DNA of 64,000 nucleotides from a virus (taxonomy: Duplodnaviria; Heunggongvirae; Uroviricota; Caudoviricetes): positions 43,976 to 107,975 of the IMG/VR virus record IMGVR_UViG_3300013121_000002; one strand, given 5' to 3'. Shown here one piece after another: positions 3,001 through 32,831 of this stretch. The stretch's first letter is position 1; every line of letters starts with the position of its first letter. The translations under genes were made by a program, and so were the position numbers. The notes beneath the pieces are model-generated. The model searched no databases, had not been told where the DNA came from, and saw only the letters and a list, made by a program, of their open reading frames with translations.

Positions 3001-4083
3001 GGTAGCGTTGCCGTGCTCAATCGCGTACTGCCGGGTGATCGCAACCCAATCGCCCGAATTGATGTGCTTCGCACTCACGTCGTGGTAGCTGCGCTTCTCC
3101 CACGGGATCGCCCGGTACACCCACACGCCGCGATCCGGCTTGCCCTGCAAGCTCCTGATCTTGTCGTAGGCTTCCCAATCGGACGTATCGCCCGTGCCGT
3201 AGTAGCGCATTCCCTCCGGGCTGTAGAAATCGGCCGGGTAGGTGCCGTTGAGCGTCACATCGTAGATCGGCGAACCGCTCTCGTGATCCGGCGCGGTGTG
3301 TGCGCCACGATAATCATTCTCACCGTCCGCCGCAGCGCTGGCACCGTCTGCGGTAGCGAAACGACCGCGCTCGTCATGGTAGGGATTGAACTTCTCGACC
3401 GACCCGTCGCACAGGAGCACGACGTAGAACACGCCGTCCTCGGCCTTGCGCAGCGGCACCTCAGTGAAGTTGCGCACATCCTGCAACGTCGCGCCGTTCG
3501 GCAGTCGTTCCGGCGCAGGAAACACCAGACGGCTCTCGATCCACTCGGGTGGGATCGAACGATTGAGCGTGCGCAGCGCACCCCAGCCCAGCATCTCATC
3601 ACGAGTGAACGATTCACGTTCGGACAGCGGCACCCTGATCTTGAGGACTAGTGGCTCAACCGAATCGAAGTCGCCTTCCTCACGGAACCTGCGGCTCGTA
3701 GCCTCGCGCGCCGCCGTCTGTGCCCAATGAAGTGCGTCGGCGGGCTCTGATGCAACGAACACCGAGTTAACGCGCCCGTTGTCACGGAAGAAGCTGTCAT
3801 CCCAATTCCGCTGTGGCGGCGTAGTCAGCAGACCTTCCTTGGTGATCCGGTCGAGCACCGACGCCGCCGTCCCGTGGTACACGAGAAAGCTCTTTCCGGC
3901 GACGAGCACCGGCACATCGGAAATGAACTGTCGAGGAAGGAACTCGTTGTTGCTTGTCCAGCGCCCATTGAGGTCGCGTGGCTGGTTCGGATCGTACTTG
4001 GTGAGATCGACGTAAATGAAATGCCGCTGGCGACCATCCGCCAGCGGCGTCGAGCCGAGGAGCTTCGCGACCGGGCTATTCAT
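1..4083 (-). CDS. Giant modular polyvalent virion protein (MuF-position minor head/injected protein). C-terminus is truncated by the window start, so the protein is >1360 aa. Contains several ADP-ribosyltransferase-like modules (H-G-T motifs of PARP/diphtheria-toxin type) and a GNAT acetyltransferase module, separated by a repeated KFNPYHDERGRF linker.
   Basis: Minus-strand frame is open from an ATG at ~4083 to position 1. The ATG overlaps the portal stop (ATGAATAG). The ORF track lists no minus-strand ORF/stop in this frame. The long plus-strand ORFs 526..1848 and 1939..3651 are Arg/Leu-rich antisense artefacts. Hand translation of 1681-2265 gives a GNAT motif (SPGAGQALMRRALGRLRARGVERVKL...YQRFGF). 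1381-1530 gives FTLWHGTAAKAVASIKANGIKP, which is PARP-like (LLWHGS...GILSQGLRIAP). 3871-3960 gives FLVYHGTAASVLDRITKEGLL. Seven in-frame copies of (T/E)K(F/Y)(N/D)P(Y/N)(H/Q)(D/P)xxGR(F/W) sit at ~4000, 3390, 2900, 2255, 1590, 980 and 330. Confidence 0.7.
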   Translation of the reverse strand, partial: MNSPVAKLLGSTPLADGRQRHFIYVDLTKYDPNQPRDLNGRWTSNNEFLPRQFISDVPVLVAGKSFLVYHGTAASVLDRITKEGLLTTPPQRNWDDSFFRDNGRVNSVFVASEPADALHWAQTAAREATSRRFREEGDFDSVEPLVLKIRVPLSERESFTRDEMLGWGALRTLNRSIPPEWIESRLVFPAPERLPNGATLQDVRNFTEVPLRKAEDGVFYVVLLCDGSVEKFNPYHDERGRFATADGASAAADGENDYRGAHTAPDHESGSPIYDVTLNGTYPADFYSPEGMRYYGTGDTSDWEAYDKIRSLQGKPDRGVWVYRAIPWEKRSYHDVSAKHINSGDWVAITRQYAIEHGNATLGGNFAIAVRKVPARELFTSGDSFQEWGWDDSVTKYDPNQPRDERGRWSPAGGGEQVQTPEFKAWFKDSKVVDAEGNPLVVYHNTHVWQEGDRALGDFTVFDRMASVTQVGRPEGMDTVGSWFSDRPDKEGAGMYASTGTMYPAFLSIQNPWEPADFDEFISMMHSTAGRDPEGTAGTWLRPIGRGSTGELRAWLASEGYDGIVFRQGRDSSRELANQTVWVALEPTQIKSAIGNRGTFDPNDPDLTKFNPYHDERGRFSEAPGGRSAAADGGGIFRSPFTEEQLDDLYERFSNEYRQAEKEFEAFKERRRFEWVGTDRKQDIVNAEWERLDRHRASLAMLENVVAQDRGSLSHSNGELFAFYDSDDPASVTAALSASIDGRTASIDYLGSVSPGAGQALMRRALGRLRARGVERVKLFAIGGSYPVYQRFGFDFVPGHEVDTIAFPRRGDQTASMEMTFDKSAGDWVITKFNPYHDERGRFATADGRSGVADGERHEGDAAQAFTLWHGTAAKAVASIKANGIKPKGGPGADEWAIKNGFPDPEEWIRQQVIGNEEEGEALIEERRASVFLSTSWNNAARFATAVAEMSNSEPVIVEARIPLDAWRVSARADELSGGQHAFRFKGTIRPEWITEVFPLDQRPDMSNLIAAGARKADYQTVFIILFVDGEEVTKFNPYHDERGRFATADGRSAAGDGGVTSSAAFKAWFGNSKVVDANGNPLVVYRGEAQGGDFTDFAEGSNWFTPSREDAAYYAAAGTEPRAFYLKSEKLLDLTDPYAQENREFLNDFASNYDDWIDPQSGEPMTIFEFLDAGALYNLDVDFRHPERNRWNRLMDAARRSGYDGVVANDFSSGQHPTYVVFDPRNIKSADRNDGGFDPTSTNAFKFNPNHDPSNGRFTFGPAGGETKPVFDNRHSLEFFRANGGTIDAYSTESVFLHYRNDYAGPFPSKRDAEWAAIVWAVAYDTAENLNFPPNTIRVTYDPYEVRLGGEVFNASGHAD

Positions 4084-5704
4084 CAACGGCCACCACGAAC
4101 TGCGTGCGGCCACCTTCCTGCATCTGCTCCTGCGCCAGCCTGATCGCCTTGGCGAGGAGAGCCGCCTTCTCAGCAGCGGGCTCCTTCTCCGCCTTGCCGG
4201 GTGCCTTGTTGTCCCCGGTGCCGTTCATCATCGCCGTGATCTTCGCCTCGCGCTCGGCGACCGTAGCAGCATCGACCGAGCCGGGCGGCGGGATGCCCAT
4301 CGACTGGTTGCGCAGCAGAGCCAGTTCCTCCTCGCTGCGCTCGGGCTGGCGCGACACGCCGAGGAGATCGCGCACGTCGTCGATCACCGGATCGTCCGGG
4401 CTCAGCACCGCACCCGCCGTCGCCATGTCGCGTAGCGCCGCCGTCACCTCGGCCACGTCCTTGAACGTCACGTCCTCGGGAACGAACGTCGGCTTGAGCG
4501 CATCGTCGAAGCCATTGAGCTTCCACAGCGGGATGAGAATGTCCCGGTCGAACGCAGCGGCGATGTTGTCGAGCACGGCGTTCGCGATCAGGTACAGGTT
4601 CCGGCTCTTGTCCACCGCGAGCGCACGGTTGCCGCCCTGATCGCCCATCATCAACGATTCGGTGCCGAGGATGCGCGCCATTTCACGCTGAAGCCGGTCG
4701 ATGGCGACGTTCAGTTCGGCGAGGCCAGCGCCGTTGCCCTGCAACAGGTCGATGCCCCACTGCATCGCCCCGGCGATCTTGAGCCCGTCCGCCGCCTGCG
4801 ACTGGTAGGGCACGCTGTCGAGCACGAGCGACGTGTCGCTCTGCTTCATTTCGAGTTGGACAAAATTCTTGAGGTCGTCGATCAGGCCCTGCGCCTGATC
4901 CTTGGTCAGCTTGCCGTCCTTGACCATCTGCTGGAGCAGGCTGATCGGAGCCCGGCCAATCGGCGTGCCGCGCAGGTCGCGCTCGAACGCACGCGCCTCC
5001 AGTTCGAGGTAGGTCTTGAAACGCTCGTAGGGCTCGGCGAGGTGACGGAACATCCCCAGCCCCTCCGGGCTGTCAGTCAGCGTGTCCTCGACGAGGTAGA
5101 CGAGCTTGCCACGCGGCAGGCCGAGCACGACGCCGGTCATCGGGTGCCGCTGCCACACGCCGGTCACGACACCGTTCTCATCGACCTCCCAGCGATCCAC
5201 CGTGTGCTGCGGGCGACCCTCGATGTCGGCGAAACCAATCTGGCCGTCGTCCCGCTTCTTGGCGGTCCACTCCTGCAAACCAAATCCATGGAAACGATAC
5301 ATGCCCGCGCGGCGCACAATGCGCGGCCACGTCGTCGCCATGTCATGCATCACGTCCTCAACGAACTGCGCCGCCTTCTCCGCTTCAGGCGACACCTTGC
5401 CATCGACCTCGGCAGGCTTCACCGTCCACTGCGGGTGACCGAGCAGGTTGAGAAAATGATGAACCGAGGCGGCGACGATACTGACGTTCGTCGCGATCTC
5501 GGATGCCGTGCGGTACTTCTCGGTGCCGGTCCATTTGGACGACCGCTCGAATGTGCGAACCAGTCCGCCATAGATGGCGGTGCCGCCCGTACCCATTTCC
5601 TTGAACGGTGCGATCCGCGGCACCGTCTGGCCGGTAACGGCAGTCAGCACGCGCTTGAGCAAGCTCGGCGGACGAACGATGGAATCGCTCACCTTGGCGT
5701 CCAT
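4076..5704 (-). CDS. Portal protein (putative)
   Basis: 542-aa ORF sits between the terminase large subunit and the MuF-position polyvalent protein. Size and acidic C-terminus are typical of portals. The call rests on synteny and size only. Confidence 0.55.
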   Translation of the reverse strand: MDAKVSDSIVRPPSLLKRVLTAVTGQTVPRIAPFKEMGTGGTAIYGGLVRTFERSSKWTGTEKYRTASEIATNVSIVAASVHHFLNLLGHPQWTVKPAEVDGKVSPEAEKAAQFVEDVMHDMATTWPRIVRRAGMYRFHGFGLQEWTAKKRDDGQIGFADIEGRPQHTVDRWEVDENGVVTGVWQRHPMTGVVLGLPRGKLVYLVEDTLTDSPEGLGMFRHLAEPYERFKTYLELEARAFERDLRGTPIGRAPISLLQQMVKDGKLTKDQAQGLIDDLKNFVQLEMKQSDTSLVLDSVPYQSQAADGLKIAGAMQWGIDLLQGNGAGLAELNVAIDRLQREMARILGTESLMMGDQGGNRALAVDKSRNLYLIANAVLDNIAAAFDRDILIPLWKLNGFDDALKPTFVPEDVTFKDVAEVTAALRDMATAGAVLSPDDPVIDDVRDLLGVSRQPERSEEELALLRNQSMGIPPPGSVDAATVAEREAKITAMMNGTGDNKAPGKAEKEPAAEKAALLAKAIRLAQEQMQEGGRTQFVVAVDE

Positions 5705-5778: not shown

Positions 5779-6243
5779 TCAGCCGTCGTCGAGGACTGCC
5801 CCCAGCAGATTGTCCTGCATCACGACGGCGATAATCTGCGCCGCCAGCCTGCCAATCGTCACGTCACGGTGGGCTGCCTCGTCGGCGAGGCTCGTCCAGA
5901 CGCTCTGCTGCACCTTCAGCACCACCTTGCGCTCGGTGTGCTTCGACACCTTGGCTCGCGGATCGCCGCGGTGCCGCGCCTCGAACACGATAGTCCGAAC
6001 GCCCGCACGCGTGATCCCTGAAACGAGGTTGGTGATCTCGCGACTGGTCAGTCCTTTCGCCCACAGATCGAGGATGCGTTCGTCACGCTCGCGCCGACTG
6101 AACGGTGCGCGTCGCCGAACCACCGCTCCATTGATTGCTTCCACCCCCGCCACTCCAATCATCGGTTCGGGCGCAGAACAATTGGGCCGTAAATGCCAAC
6201 CAGCGGTTCGTCGATGTCGTGCCACGGGAAGAACGACATGCAC
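5779..6243 (-). CDS. Small HTH-domain protein (start possibly internal, ~6160)
   Basis: Helix-turn-helix-like segment RILDLWAKGLTSREITNLVSGITRAGVRTIV. The ORF overlaps the 3' end of the terminase gene, so the true start is likely downstream. Confidence 0.3.
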   Translation of the reverse strand: MHVVLPVARHRRTAGWHLRPNCSAPEPMIGVAGVEAINGAVVRRRAPFSRRERDERILDLWAKGLTSREITNLVSGITRAGVRTIVFEARHRGDPRAKVSKHTERKVVLKVQQSVWTSLADEAAHRDVTIGRLAAQIIAVVMQDNLLGAVLDDG

Positions 6244-7940
6244 ACGGCATCGCCGAGGTTGGGCGACTTCGTTCCTTCAGGCGTCTTGTCCACCACCAGC
6301 TTCATCGTGCGCGTGTCACGCGTGATGATCGGCTGGCTGAGTTCAGTCTGGAGCTTGCGGATCAGCGGCAGAGTTGACGGTAACGAAATCAGATTGTCGG
6401 ACGGCGCGGTGAAACCGGGCTCGGTGATACAGCGATGCGTCAACTCGAAACGACGGCGCAACGACCACCACGCCTGCGCCTTGAGATTGTAATAAAAGTT
6501 CTTGTTGATCGGGCTCTGCGGATCACCGTCCACCACACGGTCGAACGGATCGAGCGGCTGGGCACTGGCGAACCACGGCGTCAGGATCAGTCCCTTCGGC
6601 AGCAGACCCTCATCGCGCAGCCGATTCGCTTCCGCCTTGACGCCAGCGCCGACACCAATGGCGTCGTACTGGAGGTTCAGCGGCAGCGTGTCCTCACACG
6701 CTGCTACAGCGCGACGCGTCGTCCGGCCGGTGTCCCGCTCACCCCACTCATCCACAAGCCGCAGGATCGAGCCCTGCCGCTTGGCAAGCGCATTCGTGTC
6801 CAGTCCCTGATCGGCCACGTCGAGGCCAGCGAACCATGCGCCAGTCTGGTCGAAGCCGGGAATGCGCAGGTGGGCATCGAGCGCCGACTGAACCCACGCT
6901 GCCGGGATGATGACACCCTCGGCAGCACCGGCATAGTCACGTTCCGTCTCGCGGGCGAACACATGCGCCATGCCAGCGTTCTCGAAAAACTCCTTGCGCT
7001 GCTGATGCCACGTCCCCGTCTTGAGCGGGTGATCGCTCCAGTCGAGAACAAACACGTTCGTCTTGAATTTGATTACTGGCTTGTCCGGCACCCAATCGAC
7101 GCCAGCCTGACGCTTGCGCCAGAACACCGTACCGAGGCCGGACACCGACGAAATGTCGATGCGCACACGCGTGTTCTCAGACAGCGCCGCTTCAACCGCC
7201 TCGGGCCGTTCGAGGTGAGCCGCCTCGTCAACGAAATAGACGAGCGTGCGACCGCCGCGGCCGATGTTGTCGCCAAGCTCGCCAGAGATCGTCGAGCCGT
7301 TCGGCAGGTTGAGGCAGCGCATGTAGAACAGGTGCTTCGACTCATCGAACCCATCGGGCTTGAGGAAGTCGGGCAGCCCGCGAATCAGCATCCGTATTTT
7401 CTCAAAGATGCTGTTGGGGTCGCCGAGCTTGTCCACCTGCTCCTGTTTGTTCGAGCCCCACCCGATAGCCGCGCCGGGCCAGAACAGCCACAGCCATACG
7501 GTAATCGCCGCGCAGACCCACGTCGCGCCCATGTCGCGCGACTTCTCGATCAGCCCACCCGCCTCGCCAAAGATGCACGCCAGCACGAAGCGAACCAGTT
7601 CCTCCTGACGAGGGAACAGGATCAGCGGAAAGCGCGCTGGCTTTCCTAACGAAATGTTGCGCGGGTCGTAGGTATCGCACCAGTGATTGATGAACCGGAT
7701 GCACCCATCGACACCGTTGGCGTAGTAGGCTCGGGCAGACGGGATCGACGCCGGATTGAGTTCGAGCCGGGCCAGCGTGCGCTCACGCCACGCGGCGACA
7801 CCGACATAGTCGGGCGGCCATTGATCCTTCGGGCAGGTAGCCGGGGCAGTGACGTTGACCTGACCGCGCTCCTCCAGCTTCTTGAGCCGTAGCTGCCCAA
7901 GCGCCGGGGTGAAATCGACCTGTGAGCGCGGGTCGTTCAT
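6159..7940 (-). CDS. terL: Terminase large subunit (TerL)
   Basis: 593 aa. P-loop-like GEAGGLIEKSRDMGATW. Walker B/coupling motif LVYFVDEAAH. The C-terminal half is acidic and nuclease-like. Position is upstream of the portal gene. Confidence 0.85.
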   Translation of the reverse strand: MNDPRSQVDFTPALGQLRLKKLEERGQVNVTAPATCPKDQWPPDYVGVAAWRERTLARLELNPASIPSARAYYANGVDGCIRFINHWCDTYDPRNISLGKPARFPLILFPRQEELVRFVLACIFGEAGGLIEKSRDMGATWVCAAITVWLWLFWPGAAIGWGSNKQEQVDKLGDPNSIFEKIRMLIRGLPDFLKPDGFDESKHLFYMRCLNLPNGSTISGELGDNIGRGGRTLVYFVDEAAHLERPEAVEAALSENTRVRIDISSVSGLGTVFWRKRQAGVDWVPDKPVIKFKTNVFVLDWSDHPLKTGTWHQQRKEFFENAGMAHVFARETERDYAGAAEGVIIPAAWVQSALDAHLRIPGFDQTGAWFAGLDVADQGLDTNALAKRQGSILRLVDEWGERDTGRTTRRAVAACEDTLPLNLQYDAIGVGAGVKAEANRLRDEGLLPKGLILTPWFASAQPLDPFDRVVDGDPQSPINKNFYYNLKAQAWWSLRRRFELTHRCITEPGFTAPSDNLISLPSTLPLIRKLQTELSQPIITRDTRTMKLVVDKTPEGTKSPNLGDAVCMSFFPWHDIDEPLVGIYGPIVLRPNR

Positions 7941-20260: not shown

Positions 20261-21304
20261 CTACCTCCCCAACAGCAGCTTGCCGCACGCCAGCACCAGT
20301 GGCGACGCGCCGTCGAAATGATTGAACGGCTGCGAGAACGCATCGAGGATTTCGAGCGCCCGGCCGACCTGCGCTTCCGCCGTCGCGGTCAGCGCAATCT
20401 TGGTCATATACGCCCGCACGACGTGACGCACCGATTCCGGGTCCACCGCAGCCTCACTTAGCTCGGCGAGCATCCGCTGAACGTCCGACCAGCGCCCGCG
20501 GCTGTTGAGCAGGCGGGCAAGCTCGAATGCCTGCGGCGCGGTCGCTGCCGAATGCAGCAGTTCACCTGCCTCCTCCTTATTCGTTACGTCAGCGCAAAGC
20601 GTGAGGTTGGACAGCGCCTGCCGCGGCGAACCATGCGCCTCCCTGACACACAAGCCCACCACGTCGTCGGTCGCCGCCAGCTTCTCGGCGTCCACAATGC
20701 CGTACAACAGGTCCGCCAAATCCTGCTTGCCGACCGGCTTGAGATCGAGGCGCATACACCGCGTGCGGATCGTCTCGGGCACCTTGGTCGGCTCCGTGGT
20801 GCAGAGCATCCAGTAGACGTGCTCTGGGGGCTCCTCGGTAGCCTTCAGGATCGACTTCCATGCCTGCGCCGACAGAGCGTGGCATTCGTCAATCAACACC
20901 ACCTTGATGCGGCCCTCGCCGAGCGGGAGATAGCGCAGCCCATCCATCACATCGCGCATGTTCTCGATGCCGGTGTGCGTCGCCGCGTCGATCTCGATGA
21001 GACTGCCCGGCAGGCAACCCAACTCGGCTGCCGCGATCCGGGCCAACGTCGTCTTGCCGGTGCCGGACGGGCCGGTGAATAGAAGCGTCTTGGCTAACCC
21101 CTTCGCTATCGCGCGCTCCAGCGCCTTCACCACCGCATCCTGACCAACCACCTGCGAGAACTTCGTCGGCCGGTACTTCGTTATCAAACCATCAGACATT
21201 GCCGCGCTTCCATGTTGAGGTGAATGTTCCGGCTGCTTCCATCTTATCCCACGCCCGACCCCATGACGCCTCGACCGTAATGGGCACCACGCGCGCCCAC
21301 TCAA
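20261..21304 (-). CDS. AAA+ clamp-loader ATPase (DnaX/RFC-like)
   Basis: Walker A FTGPSGTGKTTLARIAA. Walker B VVLIDECHALS. Sensor and SRC-like regions. Confidence 0.8.
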   Translation of the reverse strand: MSGRAWCPLRSRRHGVGRGIRWKQPEHSPQHGSAAMSDGLITKYRPTKFSQVVGQDAVVKALERAIAKGLAKTLLFTGPSGTGKTTLARIAAAELGCLPGSLIEIDAATHTGIENMRDVMDGLRYLPLGEGRIKVVLIDECHALSAQAWKSILKATEEPPEHVYWMLCTTEPTKVPETIRTRCMRLDLKPVGKQDLADLLYGIVDAEKLAATDDVVGLCVREAHGSPRQALSNLTLCADVTNKEEAGELLHSAATAPQAFELARLLNSRGRWSDVQRMLAELSEAAVDPESVRHVVRAYMTKIALTATAEAQVGRALEILDAFSQPFNHFDGASPLVLACGKLLLGR

Positions 21305-23777
21305 ACGGAACGTCGAGCATGATGTCGATTACCTTCTCGGCGACGATGCCGACGCGATCCTCACGGACACGGAAGAATGTGAGGTCATCGTGAATCTGGA
21401 CCTCGGGCTGTAGCTCGGGGTCGCCGGTTTCGGAGAGCCGACACATTGCGTCCATGACGATCTCGGCCGCAAGAGACTGGACCGGAGAATTGCACACCTT
21501 GTTGACACTCATCGGCCCGCGGCGACGGCGACCAACCAGTGTCTCGACGTAACCATTAGCCCGGTAGAAGCGCATGAGACGATCCTGCCAATCCTTGACG
21601 CCGCTGAACTGTTCCCAAAACGCATCGAAGTGCGGAGCCAGCACCTTCTCGGGGATGCTAAGAAAACCAGCCGCCGATTTGAGCGACGCACCAAAAAACA
21701 GCGGGAACGTCCACTGGTTCTTGATGTCGGTGCGGAACGCCTTGAGCGCCGCCTTGTCGCCAAGGAACGCCTCGCCGCCGATCCGTTCAGGGTAAGCCTG
21801 CGCCAGTCGCTGCGCCCACTCACCATGCACATCGTAATTATTCCACAGCGCGTCGCAGAACCGCTTGTCATGCGTATACATCGCGATCACGCGCGCCTCG
21901 ATCTGCCCGTAGTCCACCGAGAAGATCAGGTGCTTCGGCGGCGACTTGAGCGGACGCCGGACCTCCTTGGCCTCGTCGTCACGCTTCGGGAAGTTCTGGA
22001 GGTTGGGCGACTCACACGATATGCGCCCAGTCTCGGCGAACGTGGTGTTGAAGATCGCGTGCAGGCAGCCATCGGGCCACAGGTCCGGGCTGCCCTCTGC
22101 CATGATGTCGATGTAGGTGGACTTGCGCTTGGTCGCCTTGCGCAGCGCCAGCAAATGATTAGCAAGTGGGTGCTTGTGCTTCTCCCAAATCTGCTTGAGC
22201 GCGCCTTCCTCGACGGTTAGCTTTTCCTCCTTGGTGAACTTGTCAATCGTGTTGACCTCGGCGTACCGCCGCATCTTCTGGAAGATGTAGATCACGTCGC
22301 CAGTCGAGAGGGGATTGAACCGGCGACCCTGCTCACGCTCGAACGTCTTAACGTCATCAAGCTCAGCAATCGCCGCGGCAGCCTCGTCGATCCGGGCTTG
22401 GTACTTCGCCTGCAAGGCACCGATCTCGGACTGATCCACCGGCACGCCAAGCAACTGCGCCAGCACCATCGTCGGCACGCGCCGCAGGGCGAGCTTGTAG
22501 GCGTAGCCCAGCCCCTCATCGTAAATGACCTGCCACTGCTCCTCGTAGAGCCCGGCGTGGTACTTGGCATCGAGGCCGTTGTAGCGAAGCACCACGTCAA
22601 GCGGTGTGAACTCCAGCCGCAGCCGGTCCACATTTGATATTTTCTTGAGGTTGAAGCCGAAGTAGTTCTGGACCAAGAACTCCAACGAGAACGCGCCGGG
22701 GCGCATCTTGCCGCGCCGCTCGTCAATGATCGCCGCCTGCGACTGGCTATCGCCCCATCGCCCGGCGCGGATCAAATCCTTACCGAAAAAGAACCCGGTC
22801 CACTCCAACTCGAACGCGAGGTTGTGGACCGCCTTGACCGCCGTAGCGGTGCGCAGGAAGTTGCGCCAGATGTCGGTCAGCCGGGCACGCTGCTCAGCCG
22901 TCCACATCGAGCCCGGATGGTCGAACGGAAACGCAATGGCGCTATTGCGATCACCTACCGACGCCGACAGCAGCTTCGCTTGGCTGTCATACGGACGAAG
23001 CCGGTTGGTTTCATAATCAATTCCGATCACATCCAAACCACCATAAGCCGCCAGCGAACGCTCGATCCGCTCCAAATCGGCTTCACCGTTCTCCCCGGTG
23101 ATGATGGTAATGTCCCTAAGCGCGCGGGCTCGGTTATGCGGCTCTGGCACTGGCAGCCCGCGATCCACAGCCTCGAACGCCCGCTTCATGTCGAAGCCGA
23201 GCATTCGTTCATCCTCGCTGCCGGTACGACGATAATCGGTGTCGTCGTCACGACGCCGCTGGATGAGGTAGTTCGCGTCGAACATTGGATAGAACCAGCA
23301 TTTGTGGCTGCCGATCTGGACCGGCATACGCCGACCGCGCCACAAATGAATGCCGCTGAAACCACTAACCCATTTCAGCGGCACCTCACCAAAGCCGAAG
23401 ATCGCCTCGGGCTTGGTCGCCTCGATGTCCCGGATGATCGACGGACGACATGCCTCCAACGCAGCCCAATCAGGCGACTTGCCGCGACCGGGCCATGAGC
23501 GCGCGACGTAGTTCCACCGCAGGTACTCGTCAGCCCACGACGGAATATGCTGACGAATTAACCAACTCGACGGCGAGGTGAAGTGCCCGTCTGCCTGCAC
23601 GTCCATCTTCTTGGGCGCTTCGCCCAGCATGTAGATGAGCGGCTTGCTGGTCCCGGTCGGCTCTAGTCGTCCGGGCTGCTGGTTCAGCGGGCATATCTTG
23701 CATTCGAGGCTGTGCAGCAGCGCAAGCTCGCCAGTCTCGTTGTCCGTGGGCTCACCCCGCGCAAACAATAAGCCCAT
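21192..23777 (-). CDS. polA: Family A DNA polymerase (PolI-like) with an N-terminal 3'-5' exonuclease region
   Basis: 861 aa. Motif A VDYGQIEARVIAMYTHD. Motif C QIHDDLTFF. O-helix-like region. Confidence 0.9.
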   Translation of the reverse strand: MGLLFARGEPTDNETGELALLHSLECKICPLNQQPGRLEPTGTSKPLIYMLGEAPKKMDVQADGHFTSPSSWLIRQHIPSWADEYLRWNYVARSWPGRGKSPDWAALEACRPSIIRDIEATKPEAIFGFGEVPLKWVSGFSGIHLWRGRRMPVQIGSHKCWFYPMFDANYLIQRRRDDDTDYRRTGSEDERMLGFDMKRAFEAVDRGLPVPEPHNRARALRDITIITGENGEADLERIERSLAAYGGLDVIGIDYETNRLRPYDSQAKLLSASVGDRNSAIAFPFDHPGSMWTAEQRARLTDIWRNFLRTATAVKAVHNLAFELEWTGFFFGKDLIRAGRWGDSQSQAAIIDERRGKMRPGAFSLEFLVQNYFGFNLKKISNVDRLRLEFTPLDVVLRYNGLDAKYHAGLYEEQWQVIYDEGLGYAYKLALRRVPTMVLAQLLGVPVDQSEIGALQAKYQARIDEAAAAIAELDDVKTFEREQGRRFNPLSTGDVIYIFQKMRRYAEVNTIDKFTKEEKLTVEEGALKQIWEKHKHPLANHLLALRKATKRKSTYIDIMAEGSPDLWPDGCLHAIFNTTFAETGRISCESPNLQNFPKRDDEAKEVRRPLKSPPKHLIFSVDYGQIEARVIAMYTHDKRFCDALWNNYDVHGEWAQRLAQAYPERIGGEAFLGDKAALKAFRTDIKNQWTFPLFFGASLKSAAGFLSIPEKVLAPHFDAFWEQFSGVKDWQDRLMRFYRANGYVETLVGRRRRGPMSVNKVCNSPVQSLAAEIVMDAMCRLSETGDPELQPEVQIHDDLTFFRVREDRVGIVAEKVIDIMLDVPFEWARVVPITVEASWGRAWDKMEAAGTFTSTWKRGNV

Positions 23778-23805: not shown

Positions 23806-24936
23806 CTACGACGACACCGCTACGAGGAACAACCAATCGTCACCGCCACGCATCACGGCGGCCGATGATCCAAACGCAAACGAATCAGCCTCGCTCAGTG
23901 CGCCCAGCACCTCGGCAGCATTCAGCTTGATCGTCAACGGCGGCCATTCACCAGCCAGCTTGAACTGCTCGGCAAGATCGCCGGTCGAGTAGTTACCGAC
24001 CATCCGCAAGAGTGTGGGATCATCCGCCGCCACCGCAAACGAAACAAAAGGATCAGCGCCGTTGGCAACGATCACCGCCCGCGACAGGGCTTCGTCCAGT
24101 CCATCAGGCAGCGCCAGAAACGACGATAATTTGTTTGCCTCGGCCACCTTGTTGCGGACCAGCTTGGGAAGCTCGTGCATGGTCGAGACATCAAGCCGAT
24201 TGTGGAAGAACTCAACGCCCGCCGTCGTCGCCACCAAGCACTTTGACGGAAAGTACAGCCGGTCGCCGGGCTCGCACTCCTCGGCGACGCTCTCAGCGAA
24301 CAGCCGTGACAGCACGGTTGGGGCAATCTCGGGCACCACATCCATCGCCACCCGGATTTCCATGAGCGTTTTGGAGTCCGTCGTATAGAGCGCGACGCCG
24401 CCCTTGATCGGGAACAGCGACACGCCACGGTGCTCGACCTGATCCGTCGTGCCACGCTGCCTGAGCTTGAGCACGCGCTTGAGCGCAGACAAGAACTCCT
24501 CGGTCAATTCGAGGCTGGTCGAGGTGTCGTACTGCTTGGGGAACTGCCAGTAGAAGCGCGATAGCGGTCGCGTCGCAAGCGAGGACCGTGAGCGGGCGAA
24601 GCGAACGATCAGATCATCATTCGCTTGGTTCAAACGAACGTCGCCAGCCTTGCTCGATTGCACCAACCCGGCGAACACCAAACCATCGACACCGCAGTTC
24701 AAGCCGGTGTCGAACACGACCCGGACGCCGAAATCGCCATTGTAGGCTGACAGGTGCGTCCCGGTAAACCAAAACTGACCCAATTCCCGAGCGAGTGGAC
24801 CTTTGGTGCCTAGTGCAGGCATAGCCAACTCGACGACGCGTGTGAGAATTTCACGAGGGAACTTACCGCCCGGCTCGACCGACGATTTCGTTTCCTCGAC
24901 GCGCCTGCGCACCGCAGCTTCGACCATCACAACCAC
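23806..24936 (-). CDS. DNA polymerase sliding clamp (beta-like), putative
   Basis: 376 aa, three-domain size class. Sits between the polA and clamp-loader neighbourhood. No strong motif, so this is a synteny/size call. Confidence 0.4.
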   Translation of the reverse strand: MVVMVEAAVRRRVEETKSSVEPGGKFPREILTRVVELAMPALGTKGPLARELGQFWFTGTHLSAYNGDFGVRVVFDTGLNCGVDGLVFAGLVQSSKAGDVRLNQANDDLIVRFARSRSSLATRPLSRFYWQFPKQYDTSTSLELTEEFLSALKRVLKLRQRGTTDQVEHRGVSLFPIKGGVALYTTDSKTLMEIRVAMDVVPEIAPTVLSRLFAESVAEECEPGDRLYFPSKCLVATTAGVEFFHNRLDVSTMHELPKLVRNKVAEANKLSSFLALPDGLDEALSRAVIVANGADPFVSFAVAADDPTLLRMVGNYSTGDLAEQFKLAGEWPPLTIKLNAAEVLGALSEADSFAFGSSAAVMRGGDDWLFLVAVSS

Positions 24937-25030
24937 TCCCCAATCAAAAACGAAAGGTCACCCTAGCAGACACAAAAACGGCGGGAAACAGTGTTCCCGC
25001 CGTTCTGTAACAGCCAGTTAGTTCAGTGAG

Positions 25031-26113
25031 TTAGCGACCGCTGGTAGCGACCTCGATGTGGCCGTTGTGACGGAACCACCAGAGAAACTGCCGCGAAACA
25101 CCACTCGCGAGCGCGTCGCTCACCTTCATGCCCTTGCGGAGCTTCGCGAACTCGTTGAAGCGATCCGAGCCGTCGCGATACGGATTTCCCTTCACGACGA
25201 TCTTGAGCTTCGCGTTGTCCGGGAAGTCGGTCGCCTTCCGTCCGCGCTTGCCGCCAGTCGGCAACGCCGTTGCAGCCTTGCGGGCCGGGGCCTTCGCAAC
25301 AGCAGCCGCCTTGCCGCGGGCCGGGGCCTTCGCAGCGGCCTTCGCAGGGGCCTTCGCCGCAGCCTTGCCGCGGGCCGGGGCCTTCGCAGCAGCAGCAGCC
25401 TTGCCGCGGGCCGGGGCCTTCGCGGCGGCCTTCGCAGGAACCTTCGCAGCAGCCTTCGCCGGGGCCTTCGCAGCGGCCTTCGCAGGAGCCTTCGCAGCGG
25501 CGGCCTTGCCACGGGCCGGGGCCTTCGCGGCGGCAGCAGCCTTGCCGCGGGCCGGGGCCTTCGCGGCGGCAGCAGCCTTGCCACGGGCCGGGGCCTTCGC
25601 AGCGGCCTTCGCGGCGGCCTTCGCAGGGGCCTTCGGTGCAGCAGGGGCCTTCGGTGCAGCAGCCTTCGCAGCCCGCGGAGCACGCTTCGGGGCCGTCGTC
25701 TCGACCTCCGTAGTCACAGTCGCATCCATAGTTCCAACTCCTTCTGCGGACGATCCAGCATCAGCATCGACCGCGGTTACATCATCAGCACCACCTCCCG
25801 TCTCCTCGACTTCAGCAGCACCAGTTTCCTGCCCGGCATCGCCGGGCTCGTCAGCAACGATCCGCCCGGAACCAACAGGCACCTCGTCGGGGAAAGCCGG
25901 AAGCGGCGTATTCCCGGACGACTTCTTGTTGTCCTCGACCACGTCTGTCGCCGCATTCAACCACTCCTGCGCCTCGCGGCTCAGTGTTTTCCATGCGTCG
26001 TCGTCGATGATCTGACCTGCGCTGAAAATGCGGAGCTTCAACGCCTGATCCGTCTCCCCGTCCTTGCGCTCAATCTTGAGCTTCGACAGGAACTCACCAA
26101 GCAAAGCACTCAT
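25031..26113 (-). CDS. Histone H1-like / AlgP-like Ala-Lys repeat DNA-binding protein with globular N- and C-terminal domains
   Basis: The central ~140 aa are made of KAAAKAPARGKAAAAA-type repeats. The C-terminal part KLKIVVKGNPYRDGSDRFNEFAKLRKGMKVSDALASG is globular. Confidence 0.6.
   Translation of the reverse strand: MSALLGEFLSKLKIERKDGETDQALKLRIFSAGQIIDDDAWKTLSREAQEWLNAATDVVEDNKKSSGNTPLPAFPDEVPVGSGRIVADEPGDAGQETGAAEVEETGGGADDVTAVDADAGSSAEGVGTMDATVTTEVETTAPKRAPRAAKAAAPKAPAAPKAPAKAAAKAAAKAPARGKAAAAAKAPARGKAAAAAKAPARGKAAAAKAPAKAAAKAPAKAAAKVPAKAAAKAPARGKAAAAAKAPARGKAAAKAPAKAAAKAPARGKAAAVAKAPARKAATALPTGGKRGRKATDFPDNAKLKIVVKGNPYRDGSDRFNEFAKLRKGMKVSDALASGVSRQFLWWFRHNGHIEVATSGR
25260..25690. repeat. 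Coding tandem repeats (Ala/Lys-rich, about 36-48-bp units)
   Basis: Repeated gccttcgcagcggccttcgcaggggccttcgc-like units. Confidence 0.65.
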
Positions 26114-26216
26114 TCTGATTCCCCTTACTCCCGGCGCGAGATTGAGACACGCGAACTGAACGCCGTTATATTTTCTTCCCGAGGCCCAACGTCAAGGCCC
26201 AACGCAAACAAATCGC

Positions 26217-27242
26217 CTACAAGCCGACCAAATTGCGAACGAACGCAGCACCGTCATCCGCCTGCAAATCACCGGGGTCTTTGACCCCATCAGGCAGCGT
26301 AACCAACCGAACACGCACCGGCAAAAAACGATCCGCCAGCCGCAACGCCCGCATCTGCGCATCGGCGTCGAGACACATGACCACCCGCGGAAAATGCTCA
26401 AGCCGCATCAGCGCCGCCGCCTGATCGTCCGACACGTTGAGGCCAAACAAACAGGTGCCGTACACACCGAGGTCGTGCCCCAGCGCCGACACCCGCAGCG
26501 CGTCGAACGGTCCTTCGCAAATCACCAACACCCGCGGCTTCTCGACAGCCGTCAGCACCTGCATCCCGAGCAGGGTCGAGCCCGGCGCAGCCAATGCCAC
26601 CGTCTCATCCTCGAACCGGGATTCCACCGGCAGCGTCTTGTAGCGCAACTCCTCATCGCGGAGGATCGTCCGCCCAGTCCATGACACCAGCCGACCCCAC
26701 GGATCGTACACCGGGATAATCACCCGGTAGCGATAGGGTCCGCGCAGGGCGTAACGCAGGTCATAGGCCCGCGCCATCCAGTTGATTTGCTTTACGGTAT
26801 AGCCACGCTGCCGCAGGTAATCCCAAAACGGATCGGCGAAACGCGAATCAGTATCGAGCGATTTGAACTCAGAGGGTAGCTCCAGCCGGGCCGGTCGCAG
26901 CCGCGACGCCGGGGCCGCGCCGAGCGCGACGCGCATCTGCATCGCGAAATCATCGTCGGTCGGCATACTGGCGGTGCCCTCGCCAGCCAACTCGGCCGCA
27001 CGCTCGAAAGAGCAGTGCAGCAAGGCTTGGATGAGCCGGGTCGCCTTGCGACCCCGGTGCGCCGCGTTGCGCCAGCAGTGCCACCCGGCACCACTCAGCG
27101 CGATGCTCATGTGCTCGGACTCGTCAGCGGGTCCGCAGAAGGGACAATGCACCGAGATATGCCCGCGGCCGGTGTTGGGGCCACGCGTAACGAATGGCAC
27201 ACCATGGCGCTCTAAGAACTTGGGCCAGTCGAGCGTAGCCAT
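26217..27242 (-). CDS. DnaG-like DNA primase (CHC2 zinc finger + Toprim)
   Basis: Zinc finger VHCPFCGPADESEHMSIALSGAGWHCWRNAAH. Toprim-like VLVICEGPFDALRV. Confidence 0.7.
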   Translation of the reverse strand: MATLDWPKFLERHGVPFVTRGPNTGRGHISVHCPFCGPADESEHMSIALSGAGWHCWRNAAHRGRKATRLIQALLHCSFERAAELAGEGTASMPTDDDFAMQMRVALGAAPASRLRPARLELPSEFKSLDTDSRFADPFWDYLRQRGYTVKQINWMARAYDLRYALRGPYRYRVIIPVYDPWGRLVSWTGRTILRDEELRYKTLPVESRFEDETVALAAPGSTLLGMQVLTAVEKPRVLVICEGPFDALRVSALGHDLGVYGTCLFGLNVSDDQAAALMRLEHFPRVVMCLDADAQMRALRLADRFLPVRVRLVTLPDGVKDPGDLQADDGAAFVRNLVGL

Positions 27243-30313: not shown

Positions 30314-30517
30314 CGCCTGCTCCCCTGATCCATGAAGGACGACAGTGGTAGCACAACGCCGAATGAAAAAAGAAGGCCCCCCGGATGCCCTCGCGGGGAG
30401 CCTTCACTTTTGCCCACCTATCACATACCCCAGCCGGTGGCCTCCGGGGCAGAGCGTGCCACACTAGTGAGTGGCACACCCTATGTGGTGATGACGCTAA
30501 CGAATGCAAGAGGGAGA

Positions 30518-30548
30518 CATAACGAAACGGGGAGGCTTTCGCCTCCCC
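30518..30548 (-). terminator. Terminator-like conserved hairpin module (type 1, copy 0)
   Basis: GGGGAGGC-GAAA-GCCUCCCC followed by GUUUCGUUAUGU on the minus strand. Lies in the leader of the DnaB gene. Confidence 0.45.
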
Positions 30549-30632
30549 GCTCGACCATGCCCCACCTTGGCTCACCGCACCGGACCCGGCCGCGCCACAC
30601 CTCGGCTTGCCTTGCCACACCTCGAAAATTGA

Positions 30633-31322
30633 TTAGGCTTTCGCGACCTTGAACGAGGTCACGCCGAACCGACCGTAAGTCGGACGGAAATCGGCGACGC
30701 CGACGAGACGACCGGCCTGTTCGATCACCTCGCGCAACGTAGAAGGCTCGATGTATTCCGGCAGAAGAACCATGATCTGGAACGTCGCCTTCCACCCGGA
30801 GCGCAGCGCCGGGCGAACACGAGTGACGCCGTTCCGCTGGATCATCACACGACGCCTGTCGAGGTAGTCCCAAGTCTTGAGCCCGGTCGGAGCGAGTTCA
30901 GTCAGCGAGACGACACCCGCCTTGAACAGGTCCATCGCCGACTTGCGCGGCGACCGCGGGTCTTGCCGGAACTTCGCGGCGGCGATAATCGCCTGCCGCA
31001 GATACTCGCCGGGAACGCTAATGAGCCCCCTGTCATTGCGGTACAGGTAGCTCTCCACATCGTCGGTTTTCTTCGCCTTGGAGTTCTTGGCGGCGACGCT
31101 CTTGGCCTCGACCGCCTCGTTGTTCCAGCGATGGAACAGGAGATCGCTGGTGCCGGTGATCTCGACCGTGGCGGTGTACGGAATCCCCGCCTCAATGGTA
31201 TTTGCCCCACCATTGGTGGGTTCGCTGACATGATCGACGCGCTTGCGCCGTGAACCACTTGCTTCCACGTTAAAACCTCCATTTGCCATCGCGATCACAC
31301 TCGGGATTGAGCACTGTCGCAT
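30633..31322 (-). CDS. Hypothetical protein
   Basis: 229-aa ORF. Possible start at MANGGFNVEASG. Confidence 0.45.
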   Translation of the reverse strand: MRQCSIPSVIAMANGGFNVEASGSRRKRVDHVSEPTNGGANTIEAGIPYTATVEITGTSDLLFHRWNNEAVEAKSVAAKNSKAKKTDDVESYLYRNDRGLISVPGEYLRQAIIAAAKFRQDPRSPRKSAMDLFKAGVVSLTELAPTGLKTWDYLDRRRVMIQRNGVTRVRPALRSGWKATFQIMVLLPEYIEPSTLREVIEQAGRLVGVADFRPTYGRFGVTSFKVAKA

Positions 31323-31332
31323 CTAGGCGAAT

Positions 31333-31364
31333 AATCAAATGGAGTGTTCGTTAGCGTTTGTCAA
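31333..31364 (-). promoter_or_regulatory. Promoter-like TTGACA-N17-CATTTG element directly downstream of the terminator
   Basis: Minus-strand reading: TTGACAaacgctaacgaacactcCATTTG. Confidence 0.3.
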
Positions 31365-31366
31365 CT

Positions 31367-31397
31367 ACAAACGAAACGGGGAGGCTTTCGCCTCCCC
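31367..31397 (-). terminator. Intrinsic terminator, type 1, copy 1
   Basis: GGGGAGGCGAAAGCCUCCCC + GUUUCGUUUGU on the minus strand. Confidence 0.5.
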
Positions 31398-31517
31398 GCT
31401 CGACCATACCCTGCCCGGCCGCGCCATACCTCACCGAACCGCGCCCCACCTTAGCCCTCCGCACCGTGCCCGACCGTGCCTTGCCATGCCAAACCTCACC
31501 CGACCTCACCATGCCTC

Positions 31518-31553
31518 TAATAAAAAGGGCGGCTGCCTTTCGACAACCGCCCA
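31518..31553 (-). terminator. Intrinsic terminator, type 2
   Basis: Minus strand: GGGCGGUUGUCGAAAGGCAGCCGCCC followed by UUUUUAUUA. Confidence 0.6.
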
Positions 31554-31646
31554 CCATGCCTTACCCGACCGAACCCTCACCTTCGCCCGGCCGTACCGGA
31601 CCCAACCTAGCCTCACCAGACGCAAATCGTCACAAGCCGGTGCCAA

Positions 31647-31678
31647 ACCAAATGGATGCTTCGTTAGCGTTTGTCAAC
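31647..31678 (-). promoter_or_regulatory. Promoter-like TTGACA-N17-CATTTG element
   Basis: Minus strand: TTGACAaacgctaacgaagcatcCATTTG. Confidence 0.3.
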
Positions 31679-31699
31679 CACAAACGAAACGACCTCACG

Positions 31700-31744
31700 T
31701 CCATTACAAAAAGAGCGAGGAGGCTTTCGCCAACTCGCTCTTTC
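31700..31744 (-). terminator. Intrinsic terminator, degenerate type 1 copy
   Basis: Minus strand: GAGCGAGUUGGCGAAAGCCUCCUCGCUC + UUUUU. Confidence 0.5.
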
Positions 31745-31784
31745 CGTTCAAAATGAGGTAACACTATGAGGTACCGCCTCACCG

Positions 31785-31817
31785 CTCAAATGGATGGTTC
31801 GTTAGCGGTTTGTCAAC
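31785..31817 (-). promoter_or_regulatory. Promoter-like TTGACA-N17-CATTTG element
   Basis: Minus strand: TTGACAaaccgctaacgaaccatcCATTTG. Confidence 0.3.
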
Positions 31818-31818
31818 C

Positions 31819-31849
31819 ACAAACGAAACGGGGAGGCTTTCGCCTCCCC
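31819..31849 (-). terminator. Intrinsic terminator, type 1, copy 3
   Basis: Same hairpin + GUUUCGUUUGU. Confidence 0.5.
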
Positions 31850-31995
31850 GCTCGACCATAGCTCACCGCGCCTGACCTAGCCTAGCCAGACCCCACCCGA
31901 CCACACCGTACCAAACCAAACCTGACCACACCCTACCGGACCCGACCGGACCATGCCGGACCTCACACTACCTAGCCCGACCTCACCCAGCCTAT

Positions 31996-32030
31996 AATAA
32001 AAAGGGCGGCTGCCTTTCGACAACCGCCCA
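31996..32030 (-). terminator. Intrinsic terminator, type 2, second copy
   Basis: GGGCGG...CCGCCC hairpin + UUUUUAUUAUAGG. Confidence 0.6.
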
Positions 32031-32103
32031 CCATGCCTTACCCGACCGAACCGGACCACACCACGCCTAAGCGTGCCGCTCCTGACCTTACCGGGGTGCA
32101 AAC

Positions 32104-32135
32104 CAAAATAAATACATCGTTAAGTGTTTGTCAAC
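32104..32135 (-). promoter_or_regulatory. Promoter-like TTGACA-N17-TTATTT element
   Basis: Minus strand: TTGACAaacacttaacgatgtatTTATTT. Confidence 0.3.
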
Positions 32136-32147
32136 AGCACAAACGAA

Positions 32148-32179
32148 ACGAGGAGGCTTTCGCCTCCCCGCTCGACCAT
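32148..32179 (-). terminator. Intrinsic terminator, type 1, copy 4 (variant)
   Basis: GGGGAGGCGAAAGCCUCCUC + GUUUCGUUUGUGCUG. Confidence 0.45.
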
Positions 32180-32273
32180 GCCCTGCCCGGCCGCGCCATA
32201 CCTCACCGAACCGCGCCCCACCTTGCCGTAGCCAACCTTACCGCAGCGTCCACTTAAACCAAAATCAAACTAC

Positions 32274-32831
32274 CTAGTCAACTCGGTCGCCAATCGTTTG
32301 GTCCCGAACTTGCGCTAACCAACCGAGAAGGAACGAACCAACATAGCCGGGAAAGGCACGATCCAGAGCCTCGGGAACAAAAGGCACGGCACGCAGCATT
32401 GATTTCAAACCAACCGGCTCATTTCTTATATCCTGCCAATTCGCCAGCGCCCCGGCGACCGCGCGACCAAGCAGGAGCCGCTGACCCTGATTGAGCGGAC
32501 GCCCGGCATGTTCAAGGAGGTGCTTCCTGACACTACGCGAGTGCTCCGGGTATTCCGGCGAGATCGACTTCACCGGAACGAACCGGCCGCTATCGGTGAG
32601 CAGGCCGCGCCGTTTCAGTTCATGGTAGATGCCCTCCAGCAGCCAGTCGATGGTGTTGCTGGTGCCGTCAGCCGCGTCGGTCGGCAGCGCCGTCCCGGCG
32701 TCGGCGATCACAGTGCCGCCAAGGCTCGCCCCGGAGATCAGCGCCCGGACCCGGTTCCTGACCTCGCGCAGTTGGGTCTGGCTCATGGTCGGCAGCGCCA
32801 CAAGCAGGGTCTGAAACTCGGCGTCTTTCAC
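32274..32831 (-). CDS. Hypothetical protein
   Basis: 185-aa ORF divergent from the 32983 gene. Confidence 0.45.
   Translation of the reverse strand: MKDAEFQTLLVALPTMSQTQLREVRNRVRALISGASLGGTVIADAGTALPTDAADGTSNTIDWLLEGIYHELKRRGLLTDSGRFVPVKSISPEYPEHSRSVRKHLLEHAGRPLNQGQRLLLGRAVAGALANWQDIRNEPVGLKSMLRAVPFVPEALDRAFPGYVGSFLLGWLAQVRDQTIGDRVD

Follow-up and report, generated by a model that had tools for sequence, protein, structure and literature searches.

Within a 64,000-nucleotide stretch of the tailed-virus record IMGVR_UViG_3300013121_000002 (Caudoviricetes; positions 43,976 to 107,975 of the IMG/VR record), hereafter referred to as the window, the gene at 25031..26113 on the minus strand encodes a protein of 360 amino acids (aa), the middle of which is largely occupied by an Ala-Lys repeat. 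It is proposed, with moderate confidence, that this protein is a scaffold which binds DNA non-specifically and is tied to the replication machinery of the phage. Taken on its own, DNA binding by the family to which the protein belongs is probable, and a direct role in replication is held less firmly than DNA binding. As already put forward in an original prediction made from the sequence, DNA binding appears the most plausible activity, given a strongly basic C-terminal domain, a core predicted to resemble a helix-turn-helix and a basic tract upstream of it. The conserved N-terminal domain, together with the fixed place of the gene after that of the primase, suggests a role bound up with the replication machinery of the phage itself, rather than the DNA compaction, shielding from nucleases or silencing of host DNA considered in the original prediction. 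As a type, the DNA-binding architectural protein with a basic tail is known; what sets the present one apart are two undescribed domains, a conserved linker made of an acidic and a basic block, and a fixed place in a phage replication module.

Architecture of the protein

The protein, modelled with AlphaFold2 from a 31-sequence alignment, consists of four parts encoded one after the other on the minus strand, namely (i) an acidic N-domain of four helices (aa 1-75; 25889..26113), (ii) an acidic disordered block (aa 76-141; 25691..25888; net charge about -16), (iii) a basic disordered Ala-Lys repeat block (aa 142-285; 25259..25690; net charge about +35), and (iv) a G-x-RGR lead followed by the C-domain (aa 286-360; 25034..25258), which together are strongly basic. 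The presence of a folded domain at both ends, as originally predicted, is borne out by the model, where the predicted local distance difference test (pLDDT) score reaches 90-97 over aa 1-75 and 95-97 over aa 295-358. The same holds true for the disordered and polycationic nature of the Ala-Lys block, since the middle of the chain (aa 80-290), i.e., including both charged blocks, remains below a pLDDT of 52. Residues about 142-285 comprise 76 Ala, 27 Lys, 16 Pro, 8 Arg, and 8 Gly. The acidic block of some 65 aa between the N-domain and the repeat had not been mentioned in the original prediction.

In the N-domain, near-invariant residues are E20, L44, Q49, W51, and N53, and the domain ends in a proline-rich, hydrophobic motif conserved in the family, which reads LPAFP in the present protein. 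This motif was considered as a candidate clamp-binding motif and is retained as a lead at most; LPAFP does not fit the QL[SD]LF consensus. The C-domain (about 65 aa, aa 295-358) is predicted to fold as a strand, three helices and a strand, with N310, P311, R313, and G338 invariant and several further Lys/Arg positions conserved; together with the G-x-RGR lead, it bears a mean net charge of +8.3 across the family. In the model, the core formed by helix 2, the conserved Gly and helix 3 resembles a helix-turn-helix. In profile searches of the PDB with both end domains, no solved structure was matched by sequence.

Two families without a name

On sequence comparison, the protein belongs to two families bearing neither name nor function, namely a C-domain family and an N-domain family that overlaps phrog_38529. 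A search with the full-length protein was swamped by unrelated actinobacterial proteins with Lys/Ala-rich tails, namely endonuclease III and sigma factors, the sole true relative recovered being the phage protein P0002, which has a Lys-rich tract and shares 37% identity with the present protein in its C-terminal domain. With the C-domain alone, a word-index search gave no match and an exhaustive profile search was needed, by which 1,908 cluster representatives were found at E<=1e-3 and 175 at E<=1e-10, the clusters being counted at 50% identity and all bearing the label "hypothetical". Regarding the 134 single-domain proteins among the top matches listed, the domain ends at most five residues from the C-terminus in 123, and, where enough sequence lies upstream (124 proteins), Lys plus Arg account for at least 20% of the 50 residues before the domain in 104. 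The present protein has the signature of this family (NP-x-R-x-G ... G; hidden Markov model (HMM) E 2.7e-28 against the window open reading frame (ORF)) and, as in the family, a basic low-complexity tract and the G-x-RGR lead directly precede the domain. A second search with the C-domain gave 238 proteins, all unnamed or called "hypothetical" and none with a Pfam domain, and no consistent Pfam family emerged from the 124 C-domain members scanned. For the protein of the window, no Pfam or NCBIfam family scored above its curated cutoff and the whole protein had no PHROG match. The N-domain alone does match phrog_38529 (E 1.4e-5, over profile positions 19-71 of 387 only), and it carries the W..LS...Q.W.N signature of the four-helix domain of phrog_38529 type.

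The N-domain is likewise present in about 30 of the 150 best-ranking C-domain proteins (E down to 7.6e-11). In all 31 aligned full-length members, the order is the same, i.e., N-domain, acidic block, basic block, G-x-RGR and C-domain. As delimited in the family comparison, the acidic block has a median length of 30 aa and a net charge of -12, as against 63 aa and -16 in the present protein, and the basic block a median length of 43 aa and a net charge of +13, as against 148 aa and +37.

Beyond these full-length relatives, the C-domain is joined to several unrelated N-domains, and the short members examined all sit in DNA replication or nucleotide-metabolism modules. Up to three paralogues ending in the C-domain occur per phage, as in L011 (2699-3286, 5753-6382, 6977-7264) and L013 (5827-6858, 6857-7297, 7734-8681); one of these proteins adjoins, or is fused with, a DUF3846 domain. 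Other architectures are met in P0016, P0056, P0132, P0151, P0071, and P0113, with two or three tandem N-terminal copies in proteins of 790-1,023 aa or with the C-domain after a MuF-like domain; P0016, the one scanned of the proteins with tandem copies, ends in a Pfam-confirmed ADP-ribosyltransferase toxin domain. Such proteins look like injected polyvalent proteins, a type known to carry domains binding double-stranded DNA (PMC5512222). The occurrence of the C-domain in polyvalent proteins and as several paralogues per phage fits a generic nucleic-acid-anchoring module.

Respective to cellular genomes, a scan of 185,579 bacterial and archaeal species genomes (one each), made with one peptide pattern and thus of low sensitivity, gave a single C-domain hit (L084), located on contig DASZUU010000007.1 of an Alloacidobacterium metagenome-assembled genome; the family therefore seems, tentatively, to be one of rarely integrated phages. 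Thymidine-hypermodification genes were found in four of the six independent phage contexts of the C-domain examined (L001, L004, L008, which is phage PhiJL001, and L011/L012), namely genes for TAGT, HMUDK, ADDT plus radical SAM proteins, or for an SPO1-like dUMP hydroxymethylase plus a glucosyltransferase. No thymidine-hypermodification gene was recognised in the window itself.

Place in the replication module

The window encodes a large terminase (6159-7940) and a Mu-type portal (4076-5704), as expected for a tailed phage, as well as a sigma factor, a NusG-like protein and SbcCD-like proteins. The gene in question belongs to a minus-strand block which encodes, from upstream to downstream, a DnaB-like helicase, an SNF2-type helicase, a Toprim primase, the present protein, a clamp-like protein, a fusion of uracil-DNA glycosylase, exonuclease and PolA, a clamp loader, a gp32-like protein that binds single-stranded DNA (SSB), and RecA. 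The originally predicted location in the replication module, between the genes of the primase and of a beta-clamp-like protein, is thus upheld. The upstream neighbour (26217..27242, minus strand) is assigned as a primase by its Toprim and DnaG_N domains. The downstream neighbour (23806..24936, minus strand) is assigned as beta-clamp-like from synteny and because the protein annotated as a putative beta clamp in Vibrio phage MAR10, equivalently placed before PolA, resembles it at 25% identity over 200 aa (pairwise E 6e-7); the neighbour itself had no sequence match in Pfam, PHROGs or the PDB. The family A DNA polymerase (21192-23777, minus strand, 861 aa) exhibits an N-terminal domain of the uracil-DNA-glycosylase superfamily and a 3'-5' exonuclease domain.

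Among deposited phages, megablast and tblastn searches with the region and with the C-domain gave no close relative, the best PolA match being 36% identical, and scans of metagenomes and of IMG/VR gave no relative with a primase more than 49% identical; an exact copy of the protein was also absent from the contig index. The primase at this level of identity is that of the IMG/VR contig L004, where DnaB, SNF2 and primase, 41-56% identical to those of the window, are likewise followed by a full-length family member. Of 12 distinct loci recovered via the primase, about 10 have an N-domain gene at a distance of 0.3-1.7 kb downstream of the primase gene. A position downstream of the primase, in a block made of DnaB, SNF2 and primase, is thus shared by the present protein and those with an N-domain of phrog_38529 type. 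The product of the syntenic gene ends in the C-domain in the window, L004, L005, L016, and L020, and in a different small helical domain, located after a basic or RRGR-type tract, in MAR10, L023, L024, and L062. This domain swap supports the proposed DNA-binding scaffold, one small helical domain behind a basic tract being exchanged for another. The syntenic N-domain relative of L024 (1579-2382) exhibits an expanded acidic block, i.e., about 90 aa of EEAESDEDEA-type repeats, followed by a Lys-rich tract and then the different small C-terminal domain.

Upstream of the DnaB-like gene, the region 30500-32300 contains four to five repeated cassettes, with their units read on the minus strand. In each unit, a conserved box holding a promoter-like site (TTGACA-N18-TATTTT at 32134-32105) is joined by a long tract of strict 5-nucleotide (nt) periodicity (GGTnn on the minus strand, with 17 copies in family D1), and the unit is closed by a strong GC hairpin, with GAAA as its loop, and a T run. 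This hairpin is identical at 31853, 31401, and 30552 and near-identical at 32173, and a second hairpin type is present at 32029 and 31552. No match to the cassettes was found in Rfam; they might represent an origin-like region or a repeated set of small non-coding transcription units.

The repeat and its reading frame

Six units of the KAPARGKAA(A)(A)(A) type and five of the K[AV]PAKAAA type can be told apart in the Ala-Lys block, besides its degenerate ends, 13 units being counted in all. At the DNA level, Tandem Repeats Finder reports periods of 12, 24, 36, 90, and 141 nt with scores of up to 437, far beyond chance, and the copies are 81-91% identical at periods 36, 90, and 141, from which recent tandem duplication follows. 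In the relatives, the basic tracts are non-repetitive with a median length of 43 aa, so that the block of the present protein amounts to about 3.4 times the family median; on a strict measure, its uninterrupted basic tract (140 aa) is the longest among 134 family representatives, the runner-up having 105 aa. The Ala-Lys repeat is not conserved in relatives, and what is conserved is the charge pattern, i.e., an acidic block and then a basic block, which makes it unlikely that the repeat sequence as such carries the function. As judged from these alignments, the end domains and the charge pattern are conserved while the repeats are lineage-specific, and the repeat appears to be a recent, local, in-frame tandem expansion of a charged flexible tail common to the relatives. 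The KAPARGKA unit was also encountered in an unrelated protein, P0001 (198 aa, from a Logan contig of 4.6 kb), with 79% identity over 25 aa; there, it stands behind a different helical N-domain, and the protein ends in an acidic-aromatic DEFDFES tail. An origin of replication inside the gene, with iterons in the repeat as in lambda O, was considered and rejected, as the peptide repeat explains the periodicity, the variation is synonymous, and the GC skew shows no switch.

The original prediction had named two findings that would speak against it, i.e., a repeat that is hypervariable or not conserved in related phages and a frame interrupted by frameshifts; lack of conservation was found, as just described, and frameshifts were not, the gene being a single intact ORF from ATG to stop (25031..26113, minus strand; 360 aa plus stop). 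The GC content by codon position (0.56/0.40/0.77 in the N-terminal part and 0.59/0.44/0.83 in the C-terminal part) is close to that of the neighbour genes (about 0.62/0.43/0.78), the N- and C-terminal ends are both homologous to other proteins in one and the same frame, and seven of the eight nucleotide columns varying among repeat units are third codon positions. These three observations together make the 360-aa frame secure. Several long ORFs of 147-408 aa lie over the repeat in other frames or on the opposite strand, namely 25058-26284 (plus strand, 408 aa), 25128-26015 (plus strand), 25192-25683 (minus strand), and 25270-25713 (plus strand); their codon-position GC is not gene-like, and they were rejected as genes and considered by-products of the GC-rich repeat.

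Signals around the gene

The signals described here lie on the minus strand, and those before the gene were read from the sequence. A Shine-Dalgarno-like AAGGGG (26121..26126) stands 7 nt 5' of the ATG at 26113. Further upstream, the 103-nt gap after the primase gene harbours a promoter-like element (26165..26195), made of TTGACG (26195-26190), 17 nt and AATATA, which might tentatively be taken as the promoter of the gene. A consensus promoter scan omitted this element, the second hexamer of which is without the T at position 6. Two copies of GTTGGGCCT (26182-26190 and 26195-26203, with starts 13 nt apart) overlap the -35-like TTGACG and could be a candidate operator; no further copy of this 9-mer is present anywhere in the window. 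Directly past the stop codon, a GC hairpin resembling an intrinsic terminator, GGCGGGAA...TTCCCGCC followed by a T run (24974..25003), folds at -26.4 kcal/mol (z -4.5), and none of 200 shuffled sequences folded as well. The primase, SNF2 and DnaB-like genes are tightly packed, with a spacing of 1-7 nt, in contrast to the 103-nt gap before the present gene, which looks like a transcription unit of its own. A promoter-like element of its own, a strong ribosome-binding site and a terminator fit an independently and probably highly expressed protein.

Proposed mode of action and alternative explanations

In the proposed scaffold, the C-domain, the RGR lead and the polycationic tail would bind double-stranded DNA with little sequence specificity. 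The tail would provide many weak contacts, so that a longer tail would confer higher affinity and more bridging. The acidic N-domain would dock, via its proline-rich and hydrophobic end motif, on a phage replication protein or on itself, and the acidic block would fold back on the basic block, or on neighbouring molecules, and thereby tune DNA binding or drive protein-DNA clustering. The net effect would be that replicating phage DNA is coated, organised or concentrated. An extended form of this proposal, regarded as rather doubtful, would see in the family a new class of phage "diblock" scaffolds, where acidic and basic disordered blocks between a partner-binding N-domain and a DNA-binding C-domain condense replicating phage DNA into a replication compartment; such scaffolds would occur in a large clade of phages that appear virulent, as the replication counterpart of SPO1 Gp27 in transcription. 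In a variant of the diblock scaffold, the C-domain may be a reader of hypermodified phage DNA, i.e., with bases derived from 5-hydroxymethyldeoxyuridine; four of the six independent contexts of the C-domain examined carry the hypermodification genes described above.

Several points weigh against the scaffold. Polycationic Ala-Lys tracts bind RNA and polyphosphate as well as DNA. As the Ala-Lys repeat is not conserved, its extreme length could be the result of near-neutral slippage. Synteny gives a location among replication genes, which is no proof that the protein takes part in replication. The call of a promoter is weak, and Pfam, PHROGs and NCBIfam, applied to the protein and up to 124 relatives, left the family unnamed.

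Among the alternatives, the protein might be a sequence-specific DNA binder, i.e., a replication initiator or origin-binding protein or a transcription regulator, the C-domain recognising a defined site and the N-domain bringing in the helicase and primase or RNA polymerase. This would agree with the helix-turn-helix-like core of the C-domain, with a gene placed among those of DnaB, SNF2, primase, clamp and PolA in a module where no initiator was recognised, with the two copies of GTTGGGCCT over the gene's own -35-like box as a possible autoregulatory site, and with the highly repetitive non-coding region found 4-6 kb away, upstream of the DnaB-like gene. On the contrary, GTTGGGCCT occurs nowhere else in the 64 kb and the GC skew does not change sign near the gene, while the same C-domain is found on many unrelated N-domains, as up to three paralogues per phage and in tandem in polyvalent virion proteins, and is exchangeable, at the syntenic position, for another small domain, which would be unusual for a site-specific initiator; besides, a tail of net charge +35 predicts mostly non-specific binding. 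As such, a sequence-specific role is considered unlikely. The presence of the C-domain in MuF-type and ADP-ribosyltransferase polyvalent proteins, typically packaged and injected (PMC5512222), rather brings to mind a virion-internal protein, which would travel with the genome and neutralise and condense the capsid DNA or protect the DNA upon entry, all the more since a histone-H1-like protein has been proposed to compact the genomes of other metagenomic phages (PMC12619734). The gene nonetheless lies in the replication block, on the strand of this block and about 17 kb from the terminase and portal genes, its conserved N-domain is syntenic with primase and clamp genes and not with head genes, and all the single-domain relatives examined are located in replication or nucleotide-metabolism modules, which leaves a packaged protein very unlikely.

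The last two alternatives concern the Ala-Lys block itself. It may be that the polyanion bound is not DNA but RNA or polyphosphate, with an action on host polyphosphate granules, ribosomes or transcripts. The composition indeed resembles AlgP-type KPAA tracts, and AlgP has been reported to act on polyphosphate granules (PMC9239181). This explanation is nevertheless highly improbable, considering that the Pfam scan gave no AlgP homology, that the basic tract goes together with a helix-turn-helix-like domain and with replication genes, and that the family appears nearly absent from bacterial genomes (one hit in 185,579 species genomes by the pattern-limited scan). Alternatively, the repeat could be a neutral product of slippage and the middle of the protein a mere spacer, function being confined to the two end domains. 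Neither the sequence nor the length of the repeat is conserved, the 81-91% identity of the DNA copies implies recent duplication, and the relative in L024 expanded its acidic block instead, all of which would be expected of a spacer. That the middle is free of any function is still quite improbable, since all 31 full-length relatives retain the acidic-then-basic order, 21 also passing stricter limits (a net charge of at most -5, then of at least +8), since a basic tract precedes the C-domain across the wider family, and since the variation between units is almost wholly synonymous, so that the peptide is under constraint.

Meaning of the finding

Most phage replication modules include conserved genes without an assigned function, and the present gene has a clear architecture. 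At least 1,900 sequence clusters make up the domain family for which it stands, with no model in Pfam-A, PHROGs or NCBIfam and no solved structure matched by sequence. If binding and organisation of phage DNA were borne out, the protein would be an organiser, specific to phages, of the nucleoid or replisome, and the extreme Ala-Lys expansion would provide a natural experiment on tail length versus DNA binding. Should it be an ordinary non-specific DNA binder, the value would be smaller, i.e., naming a large "hypothetical" family and correcting "histone H1-like" labels based on composition.

Comparison with known systems

A kinship with histone H1 or AlgP, to which the original prediction had likened the protein, was not sustained. 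Respective to linker histone H1 (Pfam Linker_histone), no Pfam family was matched at E<=1, either with the whole protein or with the C-domain alone. Like H1, the present protein pairs a basic tract with a small folded domain, which may here be winged-helix-like, but the basic tail of H1 is C-terminal of its globular domain whereas the tail considered here is N-terminal of the folded C-domain, i.e., the reverse arrangement. Unlike H1 and H1-like proteins, it further possesses an acidic block and an N-domain and is encoded by a phage, in a replication module. The likeness to Hc1/Hc2 of Chlamydia and AlgP of Pseudomonas, i.e., a polycationic tract of short tandem Lys/Ala-rich units, is compositional only; the Hc1 and HC2 models of Pfam did not match the protein, one relative (P0007) gave no more than a sub-threshold HC2 match (23 bits versus a cutoff of 40), and the likeness to AlgP was judged without aligning AlgP. 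The best database matches to the repeat are Lys/Ala-rich tails, e.g., of actinobacterial HU, endonuclease III and sigma factors. Elsewhere, the label "histone H1-like" has been given to other metagenomic phage proteins from a Pfam Hc1 hit (PMC12619734); on the sequence comparisons made here, the same label would not be justified for the present protein. Two further candidates were rejected, namely the AT-hook (Pfam AT_hook), because the motif reads KRGRK and the units PARGK, with no Pro after RGR and no Pfam match, and TolA (NCBIfam TIGR02794), with 20 bits versus a cutoff of 59 and over the Ala/Lys tract only.

Among individual phage proteins, gp067 of Vibrio phage vB_VpaS_MAR10 (YP_007111913, phrog_38529; Mardecavirus) has a homologous N-domain (31% identity over 70 aa) and the same position, after the helicase, SNF2 and primase genes and before those of the beta clamp and PolA. 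As in the present protein, its linkers are charged, with motifs of RRGR type, and its C-terminal domain is small and helical, but it differs by two inserted beta-rich repeat domains, the lack of an Ala-Lys repeat and a different C-terminal domain. Virion proteomics data were not found in a published Mardecavirus paper. The protein gp18 of the Alphaproteobacteria phage PhiJL001 (AAT69494) shares the C-domain (Foldseek BFVD E 1.1e-4; HMM E 4e-18) and is likewise encoded among DNA-metabolism genes, but it is a protein of 151 aa with a different N-domain and only a short basic lead.

As regards the pairing of opposite charges, the acidic disordered tails of HMGB1-type proteins, T4 gp32 and T7 gp2.5 modulate DNA binding and recruit partners. 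By analogy only, these HMGB1-type and phage SSB-type proteins resemble the present one in having an acidic disordered segment and a basic DNA-binding part in one chain; their acidic tails are terminal and their folds different, whereas the acidic block here is internal. In terms of design, Bacillus phage SPO1 Gp27 is similar, with an N-domain that is small, helical and self-associating, a disordered region rich in lysine by which DNA is bound, and a small folded C-domain binding a machine, and its condensates, formed by phase separation, concentrate the transcription machinery on phage DNA (PMC13401047). SPO1 Gp27 differs in acting on transcription via RNA polymerase binding, in its length of 155 aa, and in that no acidic block has been described for it; homology is not expected and no family is assigned, the likeness being an analogy of working mode between two phage proteins of similar design.

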